Positions 34,480-42,157 of a stretch of DNA of 64,000 nucleotides are shown piece after piece. This DNA is from a virus (Duplodnaviria > Caudoviricetes). The translations under genes were made by a program, and so were the position numbers. How positions within the stretch are numbered: position 1 is the stretch's first letter; the number at the start of each line of letters is the position of its first letter. Location: the IMG/VR virus record IMGVR_UViG_3300022752_000016. One strand, 5' to 3'. The notes beneath the pieces were generated by a model. That model did not search any database. It was not told where the DNA came from and saw only the letters and a program-made list of their open reading frames with translations.

Positions 34480-34980
34480 ATGAGAATACTATTACTTGAT
34501 GACAACAGTTACAACCTAGAAACATTACCAGAAGAAATTGATGACTTACGATTTGCGATATTAGATAATAGCAACCCAAATAATGTTGATTATTACTTTA
34601 TTCCATTAGTATTTTTGGAATCGTTTAACAGTCCTGCATTAGTTCTACAGATTGGTGATCGTACTATAAAAATGCCCGTTGATTGGCAAATATTAATTGG
34701 AGAAAAAGATCATGGTGACTTAGAAACATTACCATTGTCAAGTTTAAATGATCGTGGATTCAGCGCATTTCAATTTAACCCAATAAGCAGTTTTAGCCCA
34801 GGTTTCTTGCCTGTAGAAATCATTGACATTTACAATGATGTTACTTGGTATGCACCTAGGCTACGTAATGGGCAATTTTTAAGCGTACCTATTGAAGATG
34901 GGCCTAAACCCCGATGTATATATTTTGTAAAAGAAATAAGCAGAAATTGTGAAATTGTAGATTATAGTCAAGTGTTTTAA
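34480..34980 (+). CDS. Hypothetical protein
   Basis: 166-aa ORF preceded by TTGACA at 34445. Confidence 0.8.
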   Translation: MRILLLDDNSYNLETLPEEIDDLRFAILDNSNPNNVDYYFIPLVFLESFNSPALVLQIGDRTIKMPVDWQILIGEKDHGDLETLPLSSLNDRGFSAFQFNPISSFSPGFLPVEIIDIYNDVTWYAPRLRNGQFLSVPIEDGPKPRCIYFVKEISRNCEIVDYSQVF

Positions 34981-35561
34981 TGAAAAAAACAATACCAACT
35001 GATGAAAAGTTAGAGAAACAAGACTTTGACTTGTTTGAAGCTGTTACTGCCATAGATAAAAAAGACTATGGTTATTACGATAGATTGAATGAAGAACAAA
35101 AGAAAAAGTTTGTGCCCTTTATGTTGTTACATTGGATCAGTGCGGTAAAAGGTAATAGAGATTTACAAGGGTATTATTTAATGAGTACCGAGCATCATGC
35201 AAACAAATATCTTTTTAATGAGAACATACAAAAGAACCCAAAATTACAATGGTTGATGCTATGTGCAAGTAGTCCAGGTATTGGAAAACAATTCCATCAA
35301 TATATTCCGCATATTAAAGATCGTGTTGCAAAACTACGTGATATAGCAAAACAAAAAGATATAGAGGAATATTTCAAAAAAATCTACAAAACAGATGATA
35401 ATACGTTAAAAGAAATGTCTGAGTTATATGTACAAAATCAAAAACGTAAGGTTTATTTGGCTAACAAATTTCCTCATCTAAAAATAGATGATATTGATTT
35501 ATTAAATGAACTAATTACAGACAATGAAATAGAGCAGTATGAGCGAGACAGTGGAAATTAA
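34980..35561 (+). CDS. Possible clamp-loader small subunit (T4 gp62-like)
   Basis: F.PFM+..W+S, N.Y and LQW.+L pattern is loosely like gp62; replication context. Weak match. Confidence 0.4.
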   Translation: MKKTIPTDEKLEKQDFDLFEAVTAIDKKDYGYYDRLNEEQKKKFVPFMLLHWISAVKGNRDLQGYYLMSTEHHANKYLFNENIQKNPKLQWLMLCASSPGIGKQFHQYIPHIKDRVAKLRDIAKQKDIEEYFKKIYKTDDNTLKEMSELYVQNQKRKVYLANKFPHLKIDDIDLLNELITDNEIEQYERDSGN

Positions 35562-36231
35562 ATTCGGGTGTGAATTTTGTAATCGTACTTTTTTACGTGA
35601 AAGTACGATTGCCAAACATATCTGTGAATATAAACATCGTTGGCAAGAAAAAGATAAACGAGGTAACCAAATTGGTTTTCAGGGTTGGCTACATTTTTAC
35701 AAAAGAAATACTGCTACAACAAAACAAAGAACCTATTTAGACTTTATTAAAAGCAGTTATTATATTGCATTCGCTAAGTTTGGTAACTATTGCGTTGACG
35801 TAAACGTAATTAATGTACAACGGTATATAGATTGGCTACTAAAAAATAAAATACGTATTGATGTTTGGAACCACGATACCAATTACAGTAAATTTTTAAT
35901 TGAATATTTGCGTAATGAAGATCCATTAGATGCAATACATCGTAGTGTAGAATCTACTATTCTACTAGCAAGTGAAGAAAGGGTATTGCCTAAGGATATA
36001 TTAAGATATGGTAATAAAAATAAAATATGTTATCATGTTACTACAGGAAAGATTAGTCCATGGATGTTATACCAATGTGACAGCGGACTAAAGTTTATAG
36101 ATAGTTTAGATGAATCACAAGTAAAAATGATTATTAACTATATTGATCCTGAAAAATGGGCTATAAAATTTAAAAGAAATTCTGATATTGTAACATCAGT
36201 AAAGGAAATTTTAAATGCAGGGCAGTACTAA
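35539..36231 (+). CDS. Protein with N-terminal C2H2-type zinc finger
   Basis: CEFCNRTF...IAKHICEYKH. Confidence 0.75.
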   Translation: MSETVEIKFGCEFCNRTFLRESTIAKHICEYKHRWQEKDKRGNQIGFQGWLHFYKRNTATTKQRTYLDFIKSSYYIAFAKFGNYCVDVNVINVQRYIDWLLKNKIRIDVWNHDTNYSKFLIEYLRNEDPLDAIHRSVESTILLASEERVLPKDILRYGNKNKICYHVTTGKISPWMLYQCDSGLKFIDSLDESQVKMIINYIDPEKWAIKFKRNSDIVTSVKEILNAGQY

Positions 36232-36427
36232 TAATTTTCCACATACTATAAGATTACATTGGAGACTAGGTGACAAAATAGAAGATTGGGATACTAAGTG
36301 TATTTGGGTAATAGAAACATTTGGCAAACCTGGAGTTAATTATATTACCCACGCAACTGATGATTTTATGGATTTTATGTTTAAATACGAAAAGGATGCT
36401 ATATTTTTTTCGTTAAAATGTTTATAG
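36215..36427 (+). CDS. Small W-rich family paralog 1
   Basis: W+IETFG.PG..Y...F.F..EKDAIFF.LK. Confidence 0.8.
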   Translation: MQGSTNNFPHTIRLHWRLGDKIEDWDTKCIWVIETFGKPGVNYITHATDDFMDFMFKYEKDAIFFSLKCL

Positions 36428-36618
36428 AAAAAGCTAGAGTAAGATTAATTAATCATAATCAATTTACTGAGATAATATTATGGTGTACACAATTTATTGG
36501 CGAAGAAAACACAAACTGGTATTGGACATACGTAAATGATAGTGTATTTGATTCAATGATTGATTTTGTTTTTAGTAAAGAAGAATATGCCAATTTATTT
36601 GCATTAAGATGGCTATGA
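36418..36618 (+). CDS. Small W-rich family paralog 2
   Basis: WCTQFIGE....W...F.F..EE.A.LF.LRW. Confidence 0.8.
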   Translation: MFIEKARVRLINHNQFTEIILWCTQFIGEENTNWYWTYVNDSVFDSMIDFVFSKEEYANLFALRWL

Positions 36619-36866
36619 TGCTACATTACTTTGATTTTAGACGAGGGTTCGACAATGATAAACCAAATTGGTTTATTTGCAACATTGAAAACTACAATAA
36701 TGACATGTTTGAATTTATGGATAGATGTGAGACAATGATAGATTGGGTATATAGTGAGTTAGATATGCCTGAACGTCATTGTCGTTGGACTTGTCACAGT
36801 AATAATTTTACAATAAAGTTTAGATATTTACATCATTTGAATTGGTTTAATTTACGTTGGAAATAA
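36609..36866 (+). CDS. Small W-rich family paralog 3
   Basis: IDWV.SEL......RW...IKFR....LNWFNLRW. Confidence 0.75.
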   Translation: MAMMLHYFDFRRGFDNDKPNWFICNIENYNNDMFEFMDRCETMIDWVYSELDMPERHCRWTCHSNNFTIKFRYLHHLNWFNLRWK

Positions 36867-37178
36867 ATGAAAAATTTTAAGATAATTAAGTTAGATAAAC
36901 GTTTTAAAGGATATGGTCACTTTAAATACGGTGTGACCACTAATTTCGAGTATACATTCTGTGAAATGCGTGAATGGTGTTGGACTACATTTGGACCAAG
37001 CAAAGAAATTGGGTATTGGCTAGATGATACAGACTTTAGAATTCATTATATGGCTAAACCAAAAACTATAGTACATCATAATGAACATTGGTCTTGGCAC
37101 AGTGAAGATTTAAATTTTAATAAGATTTTTTTACGATCAGAAAAAGAACTTGTATTGTTTAAGCTAAGGTTTGAATAA
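36867..37178 (+). CDS. Small W-rich family paralog 4
   Basis: EWCWTTFGP...W.W...IFLRSEKELVLFKLRF. Confidence 0.8.
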   Translation: MKNFKIIKLDKRFKGYGHFKYGVTTNFEYTFCEMREWCWTTFGPSKEIGYWLDDTDFRIHYMAKPKTIVHHNEHWSWHSEDLNFNKIFLRSEKELVLFKLRFE

Positions 37179-37396
37179 TGGTTGATACTTCTTTTAAAAC
37201 AAGAAAAGGCACAGGATATACCTACGATTGCAAAGGTAGAAAAGAAAATCCAACACATATTGTTAAATGGTGTAGAAATAATTTCGGTGAGCGTGGTAAA
37301 GGTTGGGACTTTTACACGGTACAAGGGAATGTCCATATTGAAATTTGGGATAGCAAATATAAAATGATGTATGAACTTTGGAAATATAATGTATAA
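37178..37396 (+). CDS. Small W-rich family paralog 5
   Basis: KWCRNNFGERG.GWDF...I.I.D.K..MMYELW. Confidence 0.75.
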   Translation: MVDTSFKTRKGTGYTYDCKGRKENPTHIVKWCRNNFGERGKGWDFYTVQGNVHIEIWDSKYKMMYELWKYNV

Positions 37397-37952
37397 TCAT
37401 GTAATGATTGATATGGAAACGTTAAGCACAGATCCAAACTGTGTAATATTAACAATAGGTGCTGTAAAATTTAATCCAAGGAGTACAGGTGTAATTAAAA
37501 AATTAGAATTAAGACCTACTGTTGATGAACAAATTGAAATTCATAATAGGACAATTAACGATGATACTTTACGCTGGTGGTCTGAGCAAAGCCCTGAAGC
37601 ACTTGAAGAAGCATTGGGAGACAGGGGAAGGCAATCATTTAAAGAGTGCATGGATATACTTTACAAGTTTTGTTGGAACTGTGATGCTGTTTGGAGCAAT
37701 GGTGCATCATTTGATATTGTTGTTGCTGAAACCGCATTTAGGCAAACTCTCATTGATCGCCCTAATCCTATTCCTTGGCCTTTTTATGCTATTAGAGATA
37801 CTAGGACTTTATACGAAATTGCGGGAGTCAAACTTAAAGATGGAGGTTACGTTACCACACACAAAGCAGTAGAAGATGCAGAACGTCAAGCAATTGTTGT
37901 ACAACAAGCGTATACTAAGTTAATTAAAGCAGGATTGTATGCGAATAAGTAG
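37389..37952 (+). CDS. DEDDh 3'-5' exonuclease (Rv2179c/DUF5051-like); start approximate
   Basis: VMIDMETL (Exo I), WSNGASFD (Exo II), RDTRT and HKAVEDA (Exo III). Confidence 0.88.
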   Translation: MYNHVMIDMETLSTDPNCVILTIGAVKFNPRSTGVIKKLELRPTVDEQIEIHNRTINDDTLRWWSEQSPEALEEALGDRGRQSFKECMDILYKFCWNCDAVWSNGASFDIVVAETAFRQTLIDRPNPIPWPFYAIRDTRTLYEIAGVKLKDGGYVTTHKAVEDAERQAIVVQQAYTKLIKAGLYANK

Positions 37953-38523
37953 TGATATTGATATTGATTTGGCAGATCGTGAGTCACTATTAAAATTAAT
38001 AGAACATATTCCTGCATCAATAAGAAAAAACAATACAGTAAAAAAACATCCAACTGGTGTTTATGTAACAGATATACCATATGATCCAATTAACAACATG
38101 TCAGCATTGGATTATGAAATAGCAGAAAATAGAGGATATTTTAAACTTGATTTTTTAAATGTACATGTATATGGAAAAATTAAAGATGAGCAACATTTAA
38201 TAAACTTAATGTGCGAACCTAATTGGACAAATTTGTATAAAAAAGATTTTGTTGAAAAATTAATACATATTAATAATCAATTTGACATATTATTAAAAAT
38301 GCCAGAGCCTATCGATAGTATACCTAAATTAGCTATGTTTTTGGCAATTATTCGACCTGGTAAACGACATTTAATTGGTAAAACATTTGATGTAATTGAA
38401 AAAAGTGTTTGGGATAAAGTAGATGATAGTTATTATTTCAAAAAAAGTCATAGTTACAGTTATGCACAATTAGTTGTTGTGCATATGAATTTGCTTGATG
38501 AATCAAATAACTTTTTTAACTAG
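37939..38523 (+). CDS. dnaE: Miniature DNA polymerase III alpha-like protein (catalytic-palm motifs only)
   Basis: SDIDIDLADR, KHPTGVY, GYFKLDFLN, LA++RPG and YYFKKSHSYSYA match DnaE motifs; only 194 aa. Confidence 0.75.
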   Translation: MRISSDIDIDLADRESLLKLIEHIPASIRKNNTVKKHPTGVYVTDIPYDPINNMSALDYEIAENRGYFKLDFLNVHVYGKIKDEQHLINLMCEPNWTNLYKKDFVEKLIHINNQFDILLKMPEPIDSIPKLAMFLAIIRPGKRHLIGKTFDVIEKSVWDKVDDSYYFKKSHSYSYAQLVVVHMNLLDESNNFFN

Positions 38524-38883
38524 TGTTATACTACGCCTTTTTAATCTACGCTTATTTAAATCTTGTAAAGAACAAACAGGACCATGTAAAATAGTAAGAC
38601 TTTTTGTATTAAATGTGCGTAAAAATATTTTAAATGATGTCCATTCATCCTTTAAAAAAAGATTAATTGGTATTAATCTATTACTTTCCCACCACCAAAC
38701 CTCACCTAGCATTAAAAATCTGCTTTTTTCATCTCTATCAATTATTGCACCATAATCATACAATGTAGTCACAATGTCATCACTATTTTGGATTATTCCA
38801 ACATATTCTTGATTTGCATAGGATACAACAGACATAAAAGGGTGTGTATCACTTAATTTTTTTAAAAAATCATTATTAATCAT
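38503..38883 (-). CDS. Hypothetical protein
   Basis: 126 aa; VWWWESNRLIPINLFL; convergent with the mini-dnaE gene. Confidence 0.75.
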   Translation of the reverse strand: MINNDFLKKLSDTHPFMSVVSYANQEYVGIIQNSDDIVTTLYDYGAIIDRDEKSRFLMLGEVWWWESNRLIPINLFLKDEWTSFKIFLRTFNTKSLTILHGPVCSLQDLNKRRLKRRSITLVKKVI

Positions 38884-39795: not shown

Positions 39796-40767
39796 ATGTT
39801 TGACATATTATCCTTTATTCCAAGTAAAAAAACGTTAAGTCAAAGTGGCTGGCATAGTTTTAATGCAATATGTTGTCAATATCGTGGACATAGACAAGAT
39901 ACTCGAAAACGCGGAGGCATACGTTTAGCTAATAACAGTTGGCAATATCATTGTTTTAATTGTGGATTTAAAGCTGGTTTCTTTCTAGGTAAAAGCATAA
40001 CAAAAAATGCAAGACAGCTATTTAAATGGTTAAACATTGATGAGCAACAAATAAATCGTTGGAATCTAGAGAGTATACAACATCGAGATTTATTAGAAAT
40101 AATAAAAGTTCGTAAAGAAAATAAAAAAATAAAGTTTAAAGATTATAAAATAGAAGATGGAGAAATTTTAGATATTAAAAATAGTCAACACAAAAAGTAC
40201 ATAGAATATTTAAATAAAAGAGGATTGAAGCATGATTGCTATCCTTTTTTGGTAACTCCAAATTTAATTGGAAGAAAGGCAAATAGAATAATAATTCCTT
40301 TTACCTTTGAAGGAAAAATTGTAGGACAAACGTCAAGATTTTTAGATGATAAAAAACCTAAGTTTATTAATGATCAACAACCTGGTTATGTATTTGGTTA
40401 TGATTTACAAAAACCAAATTGGGAAATTTGTATTTTGTGCGAAGGTATTTTTGACGCATTAAGTATTGACGGGTGTGCCATAACACATAATGTTATAAAT
40501 AATGACCAAGTCGAAATAATTAGTAGATTAAATAGACGAATTATATTTGTTCCAGATCAAGATAAAACAGGATTATCTCTTTGTGATCAAGCACTTGAAT
40601 TAGGATATGAGGTAAGTATACCTGAATGGGATAATAATATCAAAGATATAAATGATGCAGTGGTAAGTTATGGTAAATTTAGTACTTTGCTAAGTATTAT
40701 ACAGGCATCGACAAATAATAAAATAAAAGTTGAGATGAGGAGAAAGGCTATTGCTAAAAGATTATAA
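39796..40767 (+). CDS. DNA primase (Zn-binding domain plus TOPRIM), T4 gp61-like
   Basis: NAICC...YHCFNCG zinc motif, CEGIFDALS, VPDQD and KDINDA. Confidence 0.88.
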   Translation: MFDILSFIPSKKTLSQSGWHSFNAICCQYRGHRQDTRKRGGIRLANNSWQYHCFNCGFKAGFFLGKSITKNARQLFKWLNIDEQQINRWNLESIQHRDLLEIIKVRKENKKIKFKDYKIEDGEILDIKNSQHKKYIEYLNKRGLKHDCYPFLVTPNLIGRKANRIIIPFTFEGKIVGQTSRFLDDKKPKFINDQQPGYVFGYDLQKPNWEICILCEGIFDALSIDGCAITHNVINNDQVEIISRLNRRIIFVPDQDKTGLSLCDQALELGYEVSIPEWDNNIKDINDAVVSYGKFSTLLSIIQASTNNKIKVEMRRKAIAKRL

Positions 40768-42157
40768 TAATGATGTGCAATTGTTATTTTTGCGTATGAT
40801 GGTAACTAATTCAGAATTATATACAAGAATTATGAATATAATGAATGTAAAAAACTTTAATAAAAATTTGTTGCCTGTAGCAGAATTTATAGTTGAGCAT
40901 AGTAAAAAGTATAATGTAATGCCTGAATCAATACAAATAAAGGCTACTACAGGTATTGAAGTAGAAGTTATACAAGATTTAGATGAAGGACATTATGAAT
41001 GGTTTCTTGAGGAATTTGAAGCATTTACTAAAAGACAAGAACTAGAACGAGCTATCTTAAAAAGTGCTGACCTATTAGAGAAAGGAGAATACGATCCTGT
41101 AGAAAAACTAATTAAAGATGCTGTGCAGATTAGTTTACAGCGTGATATGGGTACAGATTATTTTGCTGACCCAAAAGCTAGATTAATGGCATTAAAATCA
41201 AATAACGGACAAAACAGCACAGGTTGGCCTAGTATGGATCAAAAACTATATGGTGGCTTTAATCGTGGTGAATTACAAATCTTTGCAGGTGGTAGTGGAT
41301 CTGGTAAATCGTTGTTTATGCAAAATCTTGCGGTGAATTGGGCACAAGCAGGACTGTCAGGAGTATATATTACATTAGAACTTAGTGAAGGTTTATGTAG
41401 TATGCGTATTGATAGTATGATGACGGATACAAGTAGCCGTGAAATTTTCAAAGACATTGATAATGTTGAGATGAAGGTTAAAATGGCAGCTAGGAAAGCA
41501 GGAAAATTGCGTATTAAATATATGCCTGCACAATCTACTGTAAATGATATTCGTGCTTATTGTAAAGAATTACAAATACAAACAGGCATAAAGATTGACT
41601 TTTTGTGTGTAGATTACTTAGACTTATTAATGCCCGTCAGTGCTAAGGTTAGCCCTAGTGATTTATTTGTCAAAGACAAATATGTTAGTGAAGAATTACG
41701 TAATTTAAGTAAAGAATTAAATGTATTATTTGTAACTGCAAGTCAACTAAATCGTACAGCGGTAGATGAGATTGAATTTGATCATAGTCATATAAGCGGT
41801 GGTATTAGTAAAATCAACACAGCAGATAATGTATTTGGTATTTTCACAAGTCGTAGTATGAGAGAGCGTGGTCAATATCAGTTACAATTAATGAAAACTA
41901 GGAGTAGCAGTGGTGTAGGACAAAAAATTGAATTAGATTTTAACATTGAAACATTAAGGATAACTGATAGTAATGAAGAAGTAAAACAATATTCACAACC
42001 AAGTCCAACTGAAATTTTAAATAAAATTCGTCCAAACAATACAGTTAATGACGTTATACAGAACACTGTACAGCCTCAAACAGGCAAAGTTGTTGCGGAT
42101 GTTCAGAGTAGCAAACTAAAGTCTTTGTTAAATAGTTTACAGAAACAAAATCAATAA
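40751..42157 (+). CDS. Replicative helicase, DnaB/T4 gp41-like
   Basis: STGWPSMDQKLYGG, GGSGSGKS, YITLEL, VDYLDL, TASQLNR and KTR. Confidence 0.93.
   Translation: MLKDYNNDVQLLFLRMMVTNSELYTRIMNIMNVKNFNKNLLPVAEFIVEHSKKYNVMPESIQIKATTGIEVEVIQDLDEGHYEWFLEEFEAFTKRQELERAILKSADLLEKGEYDPVEKLIKDAVQISLQRDMGTDYFADPKARLMALKSNNGQNSTGWPSMDQKLYGGFNRGELQIFAGGSGSGKSLFMQNLAVNWAQAGLSGVYITLELSEGLCSMRIDSMMTDTSSREIFKDIDNVEMKVKMAARKAGKLRIKYMPAQSTVNDIRAYCKELQIQTGIKIDFLCVDYLDLLMPVSAKVSPSDLFVKDKYVSEELRNLSKELNVLFVTASQLNRTAVDEIEFDHSHISGGISKINTADNVFGIFTSRSMRERGQYQLQLMKTRSSSGVGQKIELDFNIETLRITDSNEEVKQYSQPSPTEILNKIRPNNTVNDVIQNTVQPQTGKVVADVQSSKLKSLLNSLQKQNQ

Follow-up and report, generated by a model that had tools for sequence, protein, structure and literature searches.

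The 64,000-nt window analyzed here belongs to a 137-kb virus record (G000) rated 40% complete. An intact ORF of 194 aa (positions 37939–38523, + strand) extends from ATG to TAG in this window, beginning with an ATG inside the last 14 nt of an exonuclease gene (37389–37952, + strand). The encoded protein carries the motifs of DnaE in the DnaE order, namely DIDID (D6, D8, and D10), KHPTGVY, GYFKLDFL (including D71), RPG, and FKKSHSYSYA, and both this motif series and the overlap with the exonuclease gene were as the initial annotation had described them. Based on a match to PHROG 11778, a family annotated as "DNA polymerase" (E-value 1e-55), a fold search, and the tracing of its partner gene, the protein is the C-terminal half, predicted to bind metal and template, of a split minimal Pol III α of group 2.2 (Rak2-like) jumbo phages (hereafter, the C-half; its partner is termed the N-half).

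The ORF begins five residues ahead of the first aspartate. D6-I7-D8 (37954–37962, + strand), equivalent to E. coli D401/D403, was invariant in 99/99 and 59/59 homologs. K69-L70-D71 (38143–38151, + strand) aligned to the E. coli KFD motif and contains the equivalent of D555, whereas R139-P140-G141-K142 (38353–38364, + strand), aligned to E. coli residues 639–641, marks the edge of a large deletion in the fingers. K69, D71, R139, and P140 were also invariant among the 99 homologs, down to approximately 30% identity, and K142 was conserved in 91. H171 (38449–38451, + strand), kept in 98/99 homologs, aligned to the FNKSH motif and is the equivalent of H760, the presumed steric gate of E. coli Pol III α. 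The C-half is not an assembly artefact, because the identical protein was found on 10 public contigs and four lake/freshwater sequencing runs mapped to this stretch showed no indels.

Gene neighborhood and conservation of the C-half

The C-half has constant neighbors, comprising a UvsW-type helicase, genes of 166, 193, and 230 aa, a convergent gene of 126 aa, a primase, and a helicase. The gene order was fixed in cultured phages of many hosts and shared with cultured group 2.2 phages, and overlapping genes were the norm in this operon. The upstream 230-aa zinc-finger protein (35539–36231, + strand; PHROG 11058) is encoded immediately next to the C-half in many relatives. Downstream, the convergent 126-aa gene (38503–38883, − strand; PHROG 11637) overlaps the C-half stop codon and was kept in nearly all relatives; its Atlas search gave no usable match. 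The DNA primase and the DnaB-type helicase form a conserved replication block (39796–42157, + strand). On inspection by eye, the 193-aa (34980–35561) and 230-aa genes resemble T4 gp62 (the clamp-loader small subunit) and gp59 (the helicase loader), respectively, although searches of Pfam, PDB, and Atlas did not confirm this likeness. Five small tryptophan-rich ORFs (66–103 aa; 36215–37396) separate the 230-aa gene from the exonuclease gene, and their number differs among close relatives. In one relative (G009; L201:1008–1499, − strand), a peptide-deformylase-like gene, recognized by eye from GIGLAAPQ, EGCLS, and HELDH, is inserted directly 3′ of the C-half.

Homologs of the C-half were abundant, with at least 7,991 clusters of similar length and matches reaching 47% identity in 95 records of cultured phages. 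Cultured carriers included Atu_ph07, PA5oct, Paride, GAP32, PBECO4, and the 141-kb Alishewanella phage Slicko01, and identity to the C-halves of Atu_ph07, PA5oct, GAP32, and PBECO4 was 36–47%. The median dN/dS was 0.11 (42 pairs), and the three catalytic aspartates were kept in 99/99 homologs; these substitution patterns indicate that the C-half is under purifying selection, and the relaxed selection that the initial annotation had named as a possible sign of decay was not seen. Internal stops in nine homolog loci proved to be an artefact of BLAST alignments that overran the true stop, and no homolog was broken. The C-half behaves as a core gene of the phage group rather than as a patchy counter-defence gene.

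Relationship of the C-half to bacterial family C polymerases

Single-sequence searches of Pfam and PDB with the C-half gave nothing useful, and only the profile and fold comparisons were informative. A profile of the 99 homologs matched E. coli Pol III α (E-value 3.7e-5), with C-half residues 55–140 aligned to E. coli 539–641 and residues 151–178 aligned to 739–767. The AlphaFold model of the C-half alone had a pLDDT of 94.5, and its seven best matches among 48,161 were PolC/DnaE chains (Z 9.6–6.3; next best 4.0), with 187–189 residues aligned at a root mean square deviation of 3.3–4.3. This comparison with the DnaE palm, which had been proposed as a check on the initial annotation, places the 194 residues as the equivalent of E. 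coli DnaE 398–781 with large internal deletions. As judged from the model, the fold is that of the DnaE/PolC palm and part of the fingers, and the fold search and alignment located in it a Pol-β-like palm with the DxD motif and the third aspartate.

The phage enzyme shares with DnaE/PolC (PDB ID: 2hnh, 5m1s, 2hpi, 5lew, and 3f2b) the palm fold, the three catalytic aspartates, the RPG motif, and the sugar-gate histidine, as well as the GRGS loop, which in the phage resides in the N-half. It differs in size and organization, consisting of approximately 360 residues in two chains, whereas the bacterial enzymes exceed 1100 residues in one chain. It also has no intact PHP domain and nothing past residue 781, the thumb is mostly gone, residues 642–738 are deleted, and several triphosphate-binding arginines are apparently lost. 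The PHP, thumb, clamp-binding motif, HhH, and OB elements that a full replicase combines in one chain were not found together in the C-half. The initial annotation had correctly listed the PHP domain, most of the thumb and fingers, and the clamp-binding and OB regions as missing, but had overlooked a further absence, namely that of the N-terminal part of the palm, which bears the GRGS nucleotide-binding loop and is encoded by a separate gene.

We take R390, R396, R709, and R710 to be the arginines of E. coli DnaE that bind the dNTP triphosphate. The R390 column is occupied by a conserved glutamate in the N-half, the R396 position falls at the split point, and positions 709–710 lie inside the deleted 642–738 segment. 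Because these arginines appear to be replaced or deleted, catalysis may be weak or differently organized; the conserved residues K142 and K168 may serve as substitutes. The retained histidine bears on the choice of substrate. H760 of E. coli Pol III α is the presumed ribonucleotide steric gate (PMC8485763), and H171 aligns with it and is kept, so that DNA synthesis is favored for the C-half enzyme. The near-universal retention of this deoxyribose-selecting residue argues against the RNA-end modification that had been considered among the possible roles.

The N-terminal partner, natural fusions, and other polymerases

Iyer et al. (2021; Viruses 13:63; PMC7824862) described group 2.2 jumbo phages with a minimal Pol III α beside a family B polymerase. 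In that description, the minimal enzyme is split between distant genes, one for an N-terminal NTP-binding part and the other for a C-terminal Mg- and template-binding part; an active two-subunit enzyme is presented as a prediction, and synthesis of one strand, or repair, is suggested as its role. The initial annotation had treated the mini-polymerase as new and had offered "one subunit of a split enzyme" as one alternative. The novelty does not hold in view of the 2021 publication, and the alternative proved correct, since we traced the N-half in the same phage.

The N-half gene (L310:9335–9844), located outside the window, encodes 169 aa with the GRGS loop and matched PF07733 and PHROG 11127 (E-value 1e-35). 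A 61.9-kb public contig that carries the C-half, 99.9–100% identical to G000 where compared, includes at its end the first 57 codons of the N-half, and the whole gene is present on an overlapping identical contig, with GroES and a clamp loader downstream. The N-half is thus located 50,271 bp downstream of the C-half. Searches of the 137-kb record G000 with PF07733, a protein query, and GRGS patterns did not find it, and a family B polymerase (PolB) search of G000 was likewise empty; both genes are missing because this 40%-complete fragment ends ahead of them. Consistent with this, in close relatives the N-half lay 10–12.5 kb beyond the gene where G000 stops.

In relatives, the N-half is a separate gene of approximately 170 aa ending at the equivalent of the DnaE motif FERFLN, and the C-half starts just before PDFDVD, which defines the split point. 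Both halves were present in the same cultured phages and in 4/4 environmental records of at least 90% completeness, and the C-half was found in 11 of the 12 large records with an N-half, two of which had been first found by the C-half. Slicko01 (OQ508956.1; L088 and L089) encodes both halves approximately 11 kb apart in a 141-kb genome, and the split system therefore extends beyond jumbo genomes. At the start of the N-half of the window's phage (L310:9290–9337), TTGACT is followed by TGTTAAAAT 6 nt upstream of the ATG, a spacing that cannot accommodate a ribosome-binding site and suggests that the transcript is leaderless.

Three metagenomic clusters from different data sets (ENA and Logan) represent naturally fused versions of the N-half and the C-half, namely P0162 (375 aa), P0271, and P0272 (375–376 aa in all), in which a short linker joins the N- and C-terminal parts (L113:1066–2193; L114:519–1649; and the P0271 locus). 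The N part of P0162 was 41% identical to the N-half of relative G002 and its C part 43% identical to the C-half of the window, whereas P0271 and P0272 were 78–81% identical to P0162. These two further clusters from other data sets indicate that the fusions represent a real lineage rather than a misassembly. The fusion genes occupy the usual C-half position, ahead of the convergent gene. A search for longer C-half homologs had returned none, a false blank given that other routes did find the fusions.

The fusion model (pLDDT 86) matched DnaE with a Z of 21.2 over 336 residues (root mean square deviation, 4.1), approximately twice the Z of the C-half alone, and by Foldseek with an E-value of 1e-7. 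Together with these predicted structures, the fusions offer the best indirect indication that both halves would work as one enzyme. The structural alignment with DnaE starts at approximately residue 10, within the PHP region, where the pLDDT was 45–69; this hints at a possible PHP remnant in the N-half, although the profile comparison did not reach this PHP-aligned part.

The same phage also encodes a PolB of 902 aa that includes an exonuclease domain, located on overlapping contigs beyond the window; the link from the N-half to PolB was made by joining contigs via identical proteins rather than on one contig. PolB was found in 10/13 records, including all complete ones, and its matches lay in two separate frames in Slicko01, Atu_ph07, and the relative G011. 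Moreover, the phage contains a 566-aa PHP-less DnaE (P0286; L317:9098–10798, − strand) with the motifs GSAGS, PDIDLD, and KID, transcribed away from the PolB unit. A homolog occurred in only 1/14 relatives (60% identity), and this DnaE is therefore considered accessory. The search for other DnaE pieces and a family B polymerase, which had been recommended earlier, thus located the N-half, the 566-aa DnaE, and PolB beyond the G000 fragment, giving the phage three polymerases, i.e., the split mini Pol III, the 566-aa DnaE, and PolB.

The window phage shares with the system of PMC7824862 the two distant genes (PHROG 11778 for the C-half and PHROG 11127 for the N-half) and the family B polymerase. 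It differs from the published system in that the start of the C-half is overlapped by a DexA-like gene and in possessing the 566-aa DnaE, whereas the paper states that group 2.2 phages have no other Pol III domains. The accessible text makes no mention of the fusions or of the copy in the 141-kb phage. The C-half of the window is a further member of the system published in 2021 and adds little as a discovery.

Division of dnaE between two distant genes is also found in cyanobacteria. There, the genes carry split inteins, the halves splice to a full-size protein, and the split lies far nearer the C-terminus. The phage arrangement resembles the cyanobacterial one in dividing dnaE between distant genes, but the phage ORFs are too short to accommodate an intein, and the division falls immediately ahead of the first catalytic aspartate.

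The adjacent exonuclease and the proposed function

The gene preceding the C-half (37389–37952, + strand) encodes a 187-aa DexA/Rv2179c-like DEDDh 3′–5′ exonuclease (PF16473; E-value 3.5e-32), which is a lineage-limited neighbor. It belongs to the same family as T4 DexA (PMC12153337), and its only PDB matches were the T4 DexA structures 8KEL and 8KEN; the relation is distant (E-value 1e-7), and DexA is longer (227 aa). The catalytic residues D8, E10, D109, H158, and D163 were invariant (16/16), the median dN/dS was 0.14, and the gene was single-copy in 10/10 environmental genomes.

We examined how stably this gene accompanies the C-half. The exonuclease was located within approximately 1.5 kb upstream of the C-half in 22 of 80 C-half loci and was absent from that position in 57. 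Conversely, among the 80 closest exonuclease loci, the C-half lay within 2.2 kb in 77; the two genes overlapped in 49 of these loci, and other genes intervened in 28. On a quick tree of the C-half, all exonuclease-adjacent cases fell in one 48-row branch that includes the window (SH-aLRT 84), and adjacency required four changes versus 29 for shuffled labels, consistent with a single move of the exonuclease into the replication operon of this lineage. Five environmental relatives carry an exonuclease (31–44% identical) 36–50 kb or more from the C-half, and searches for PF16473 gave no match in four cultured phages with both halves (Atu_ph07, Slicko01, Paride, and RsoM2USA). The exonuclease was therefore not present and linked wherever the polymerase occurs, in contrast to what would be expected of an ε-like subunit. 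In GAP32 and PBECO4 (L205:735–1580; L208:814–1632), a gene for an ε-like "DNA polymerase exonuclease subunit", different from the window exonuclease, is located approximately 4.5 kb upstream of the C-half, ahead of the UvsW-type helicase; its product is possibly another candidate proofreader.

Because the exonuclease is adjacent in one sub-lineage and distant or not found elsewhere, a general proofreading partnership is unsupported, and the functional coupling with proofreading in trans that the initial annotation had proposed found no support in this comparison. The exonuclease is most likely an independent DexA-type enzyme for DNA trimming or scavenging, although local cooperation with the polymerase is conceivable inside the window's lineage, where the link is stable. 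The 230-aa zinc-finger protein that often abuts the C-half is a better candidate partner.

The two halves are encoded by one phage, are found together and conserved in relatives, are joined in natural fusions, and adopt a DnaE-like fold in models. We consider it probable that the C-half serves as the C-subunit in a minimal family C DNA polymerase, encoded by two genes and free of inteins, that performs short, distributive synthesis in aid of PolB. In this mechanism, the 169-aa N-subunit and the 194-aa C-subunit would pair to form a core of approximately 360 residues, with the N-subunit supplying the GRGS nucleotide-binding loop and the C-subunit the three metal-binding aspartates, the fingers helix, and the sugar gate. 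The two subunits would bind each other and polymerize dNTPs on a template, and PolB of the phage itself would act as the main replicase. Synthesis should be short and distributive because the clamp-binding, HhH, and OB regions are missing, together with most of the thumb and a large share of the fingers; with the sugar-gate histidine kept, a low-processivity DNA polymerase is the likely activity. A literature search covering few subscription papers found no experimental study of the split mini-polymerase.

Within this proposal, the enzyme may well extend primase-made primers at the replication fork and hand them off to PolB. DnaE of Bacillus subtilis extends primers for PolC in this way. Gap filling in recombination-dependent replication and repair is a tenable second role. 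The fork role is slightly favored because the C-half is a core gene grouped with those for helicase and primase, and the N-half lies near the clamp loader, a choice that reflects gene context only. A bolder version, in which the approximately 360-residue enzyme is an essential fork component of a hybrid family B and family C replisome, with the DexA-like exonuclease perhaps as a proofreader in this lineage, is conceivable yet doubtful. If it were true, the 375-aa fusion would represent a functional family C polymerase of very small size in a single chain.

Other explanations were judged against the same data. A three-part mini Pol III, in which the DexA-like exonuclease of this lineage was recruited as a proofreading or trimming subunit of the two halves, like E. 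coli ε, would account for the 14-nt overlap in the window and for the 49 overlapping loci, and the single-copy state, invariant DEDDh residues, and low dN/dS of the exonuclease agree with it. We regard it as unlikely, given that gene overlap is the norm in this operon, that genes intervene in 28 of the close loci, that the exonuclease is distant in five relatives, and that PF16473 was not found in the four cultured phages. Similarly improbable is that the two halves together start DNA chains themselves or add untemplated nucleotides to ends, e.g., in genome-end processing or counter-defence. The deleted thumb and duplex-binding parts and the apparent loss of the usual triphosphate arginines would fit such an activity, as would a Pol-β-like palm common to terminal transferases, to which the structural matches were weak (Z of 4 or below). 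The best structural matches by far, however, were templated family C polymerases; both halves are located among replisome genes, the phage has its own primase, and the C-half is a core gene of the group rather than a patchily distributed one.

Two further explanations concern the C-half by itself. The initial annotation had proposed a minimal C-family nucleotidyltransferase; the conserved core, the DnaE-like fold, and purifying selection uphold that description, but not its self-sufficiency, as the half with the GRGS loop is a separate gene. A 194-aa enzyme that needs no partner, which the presence of all three aspartates and the confident model of the C-half alone might suggest, is very improbable, because the C-half has neither the GRGS loop nor the supporting palm helices, and there is a complementary gene, ending where the C-half begins, that accompanies it and in three natural proteins forms a single chain with it. 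That the C-half is a host dnaE fragment undergoing decay, as its length of one sixth of DnaE might imply, is hardly credible and is already refuted by the conservation data, i.e., the thousands of homolog clusters of similar length, the catalytic residues invariant to approximately 30% identity, the low dN/dS, and a gene order that is constant across cultured phages infecting many hosts.

The preferred reading thus remains a two-gene minimal family C polymerase working beside PolB, encoded by two core genes of a phage group that is both large and abundant; the function of this gene pair is a matter of prediction. To the published system, this analysis makes several useful additions: the single-chain fusions ease expression and assay, the sugar gate is kept while the triphosphate arginines are apparently lost, and the exonuclease is no general partner. 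Should the two-gene enzyme prove active, it would set the minimal catalytic core for the family of bacterial replicases.
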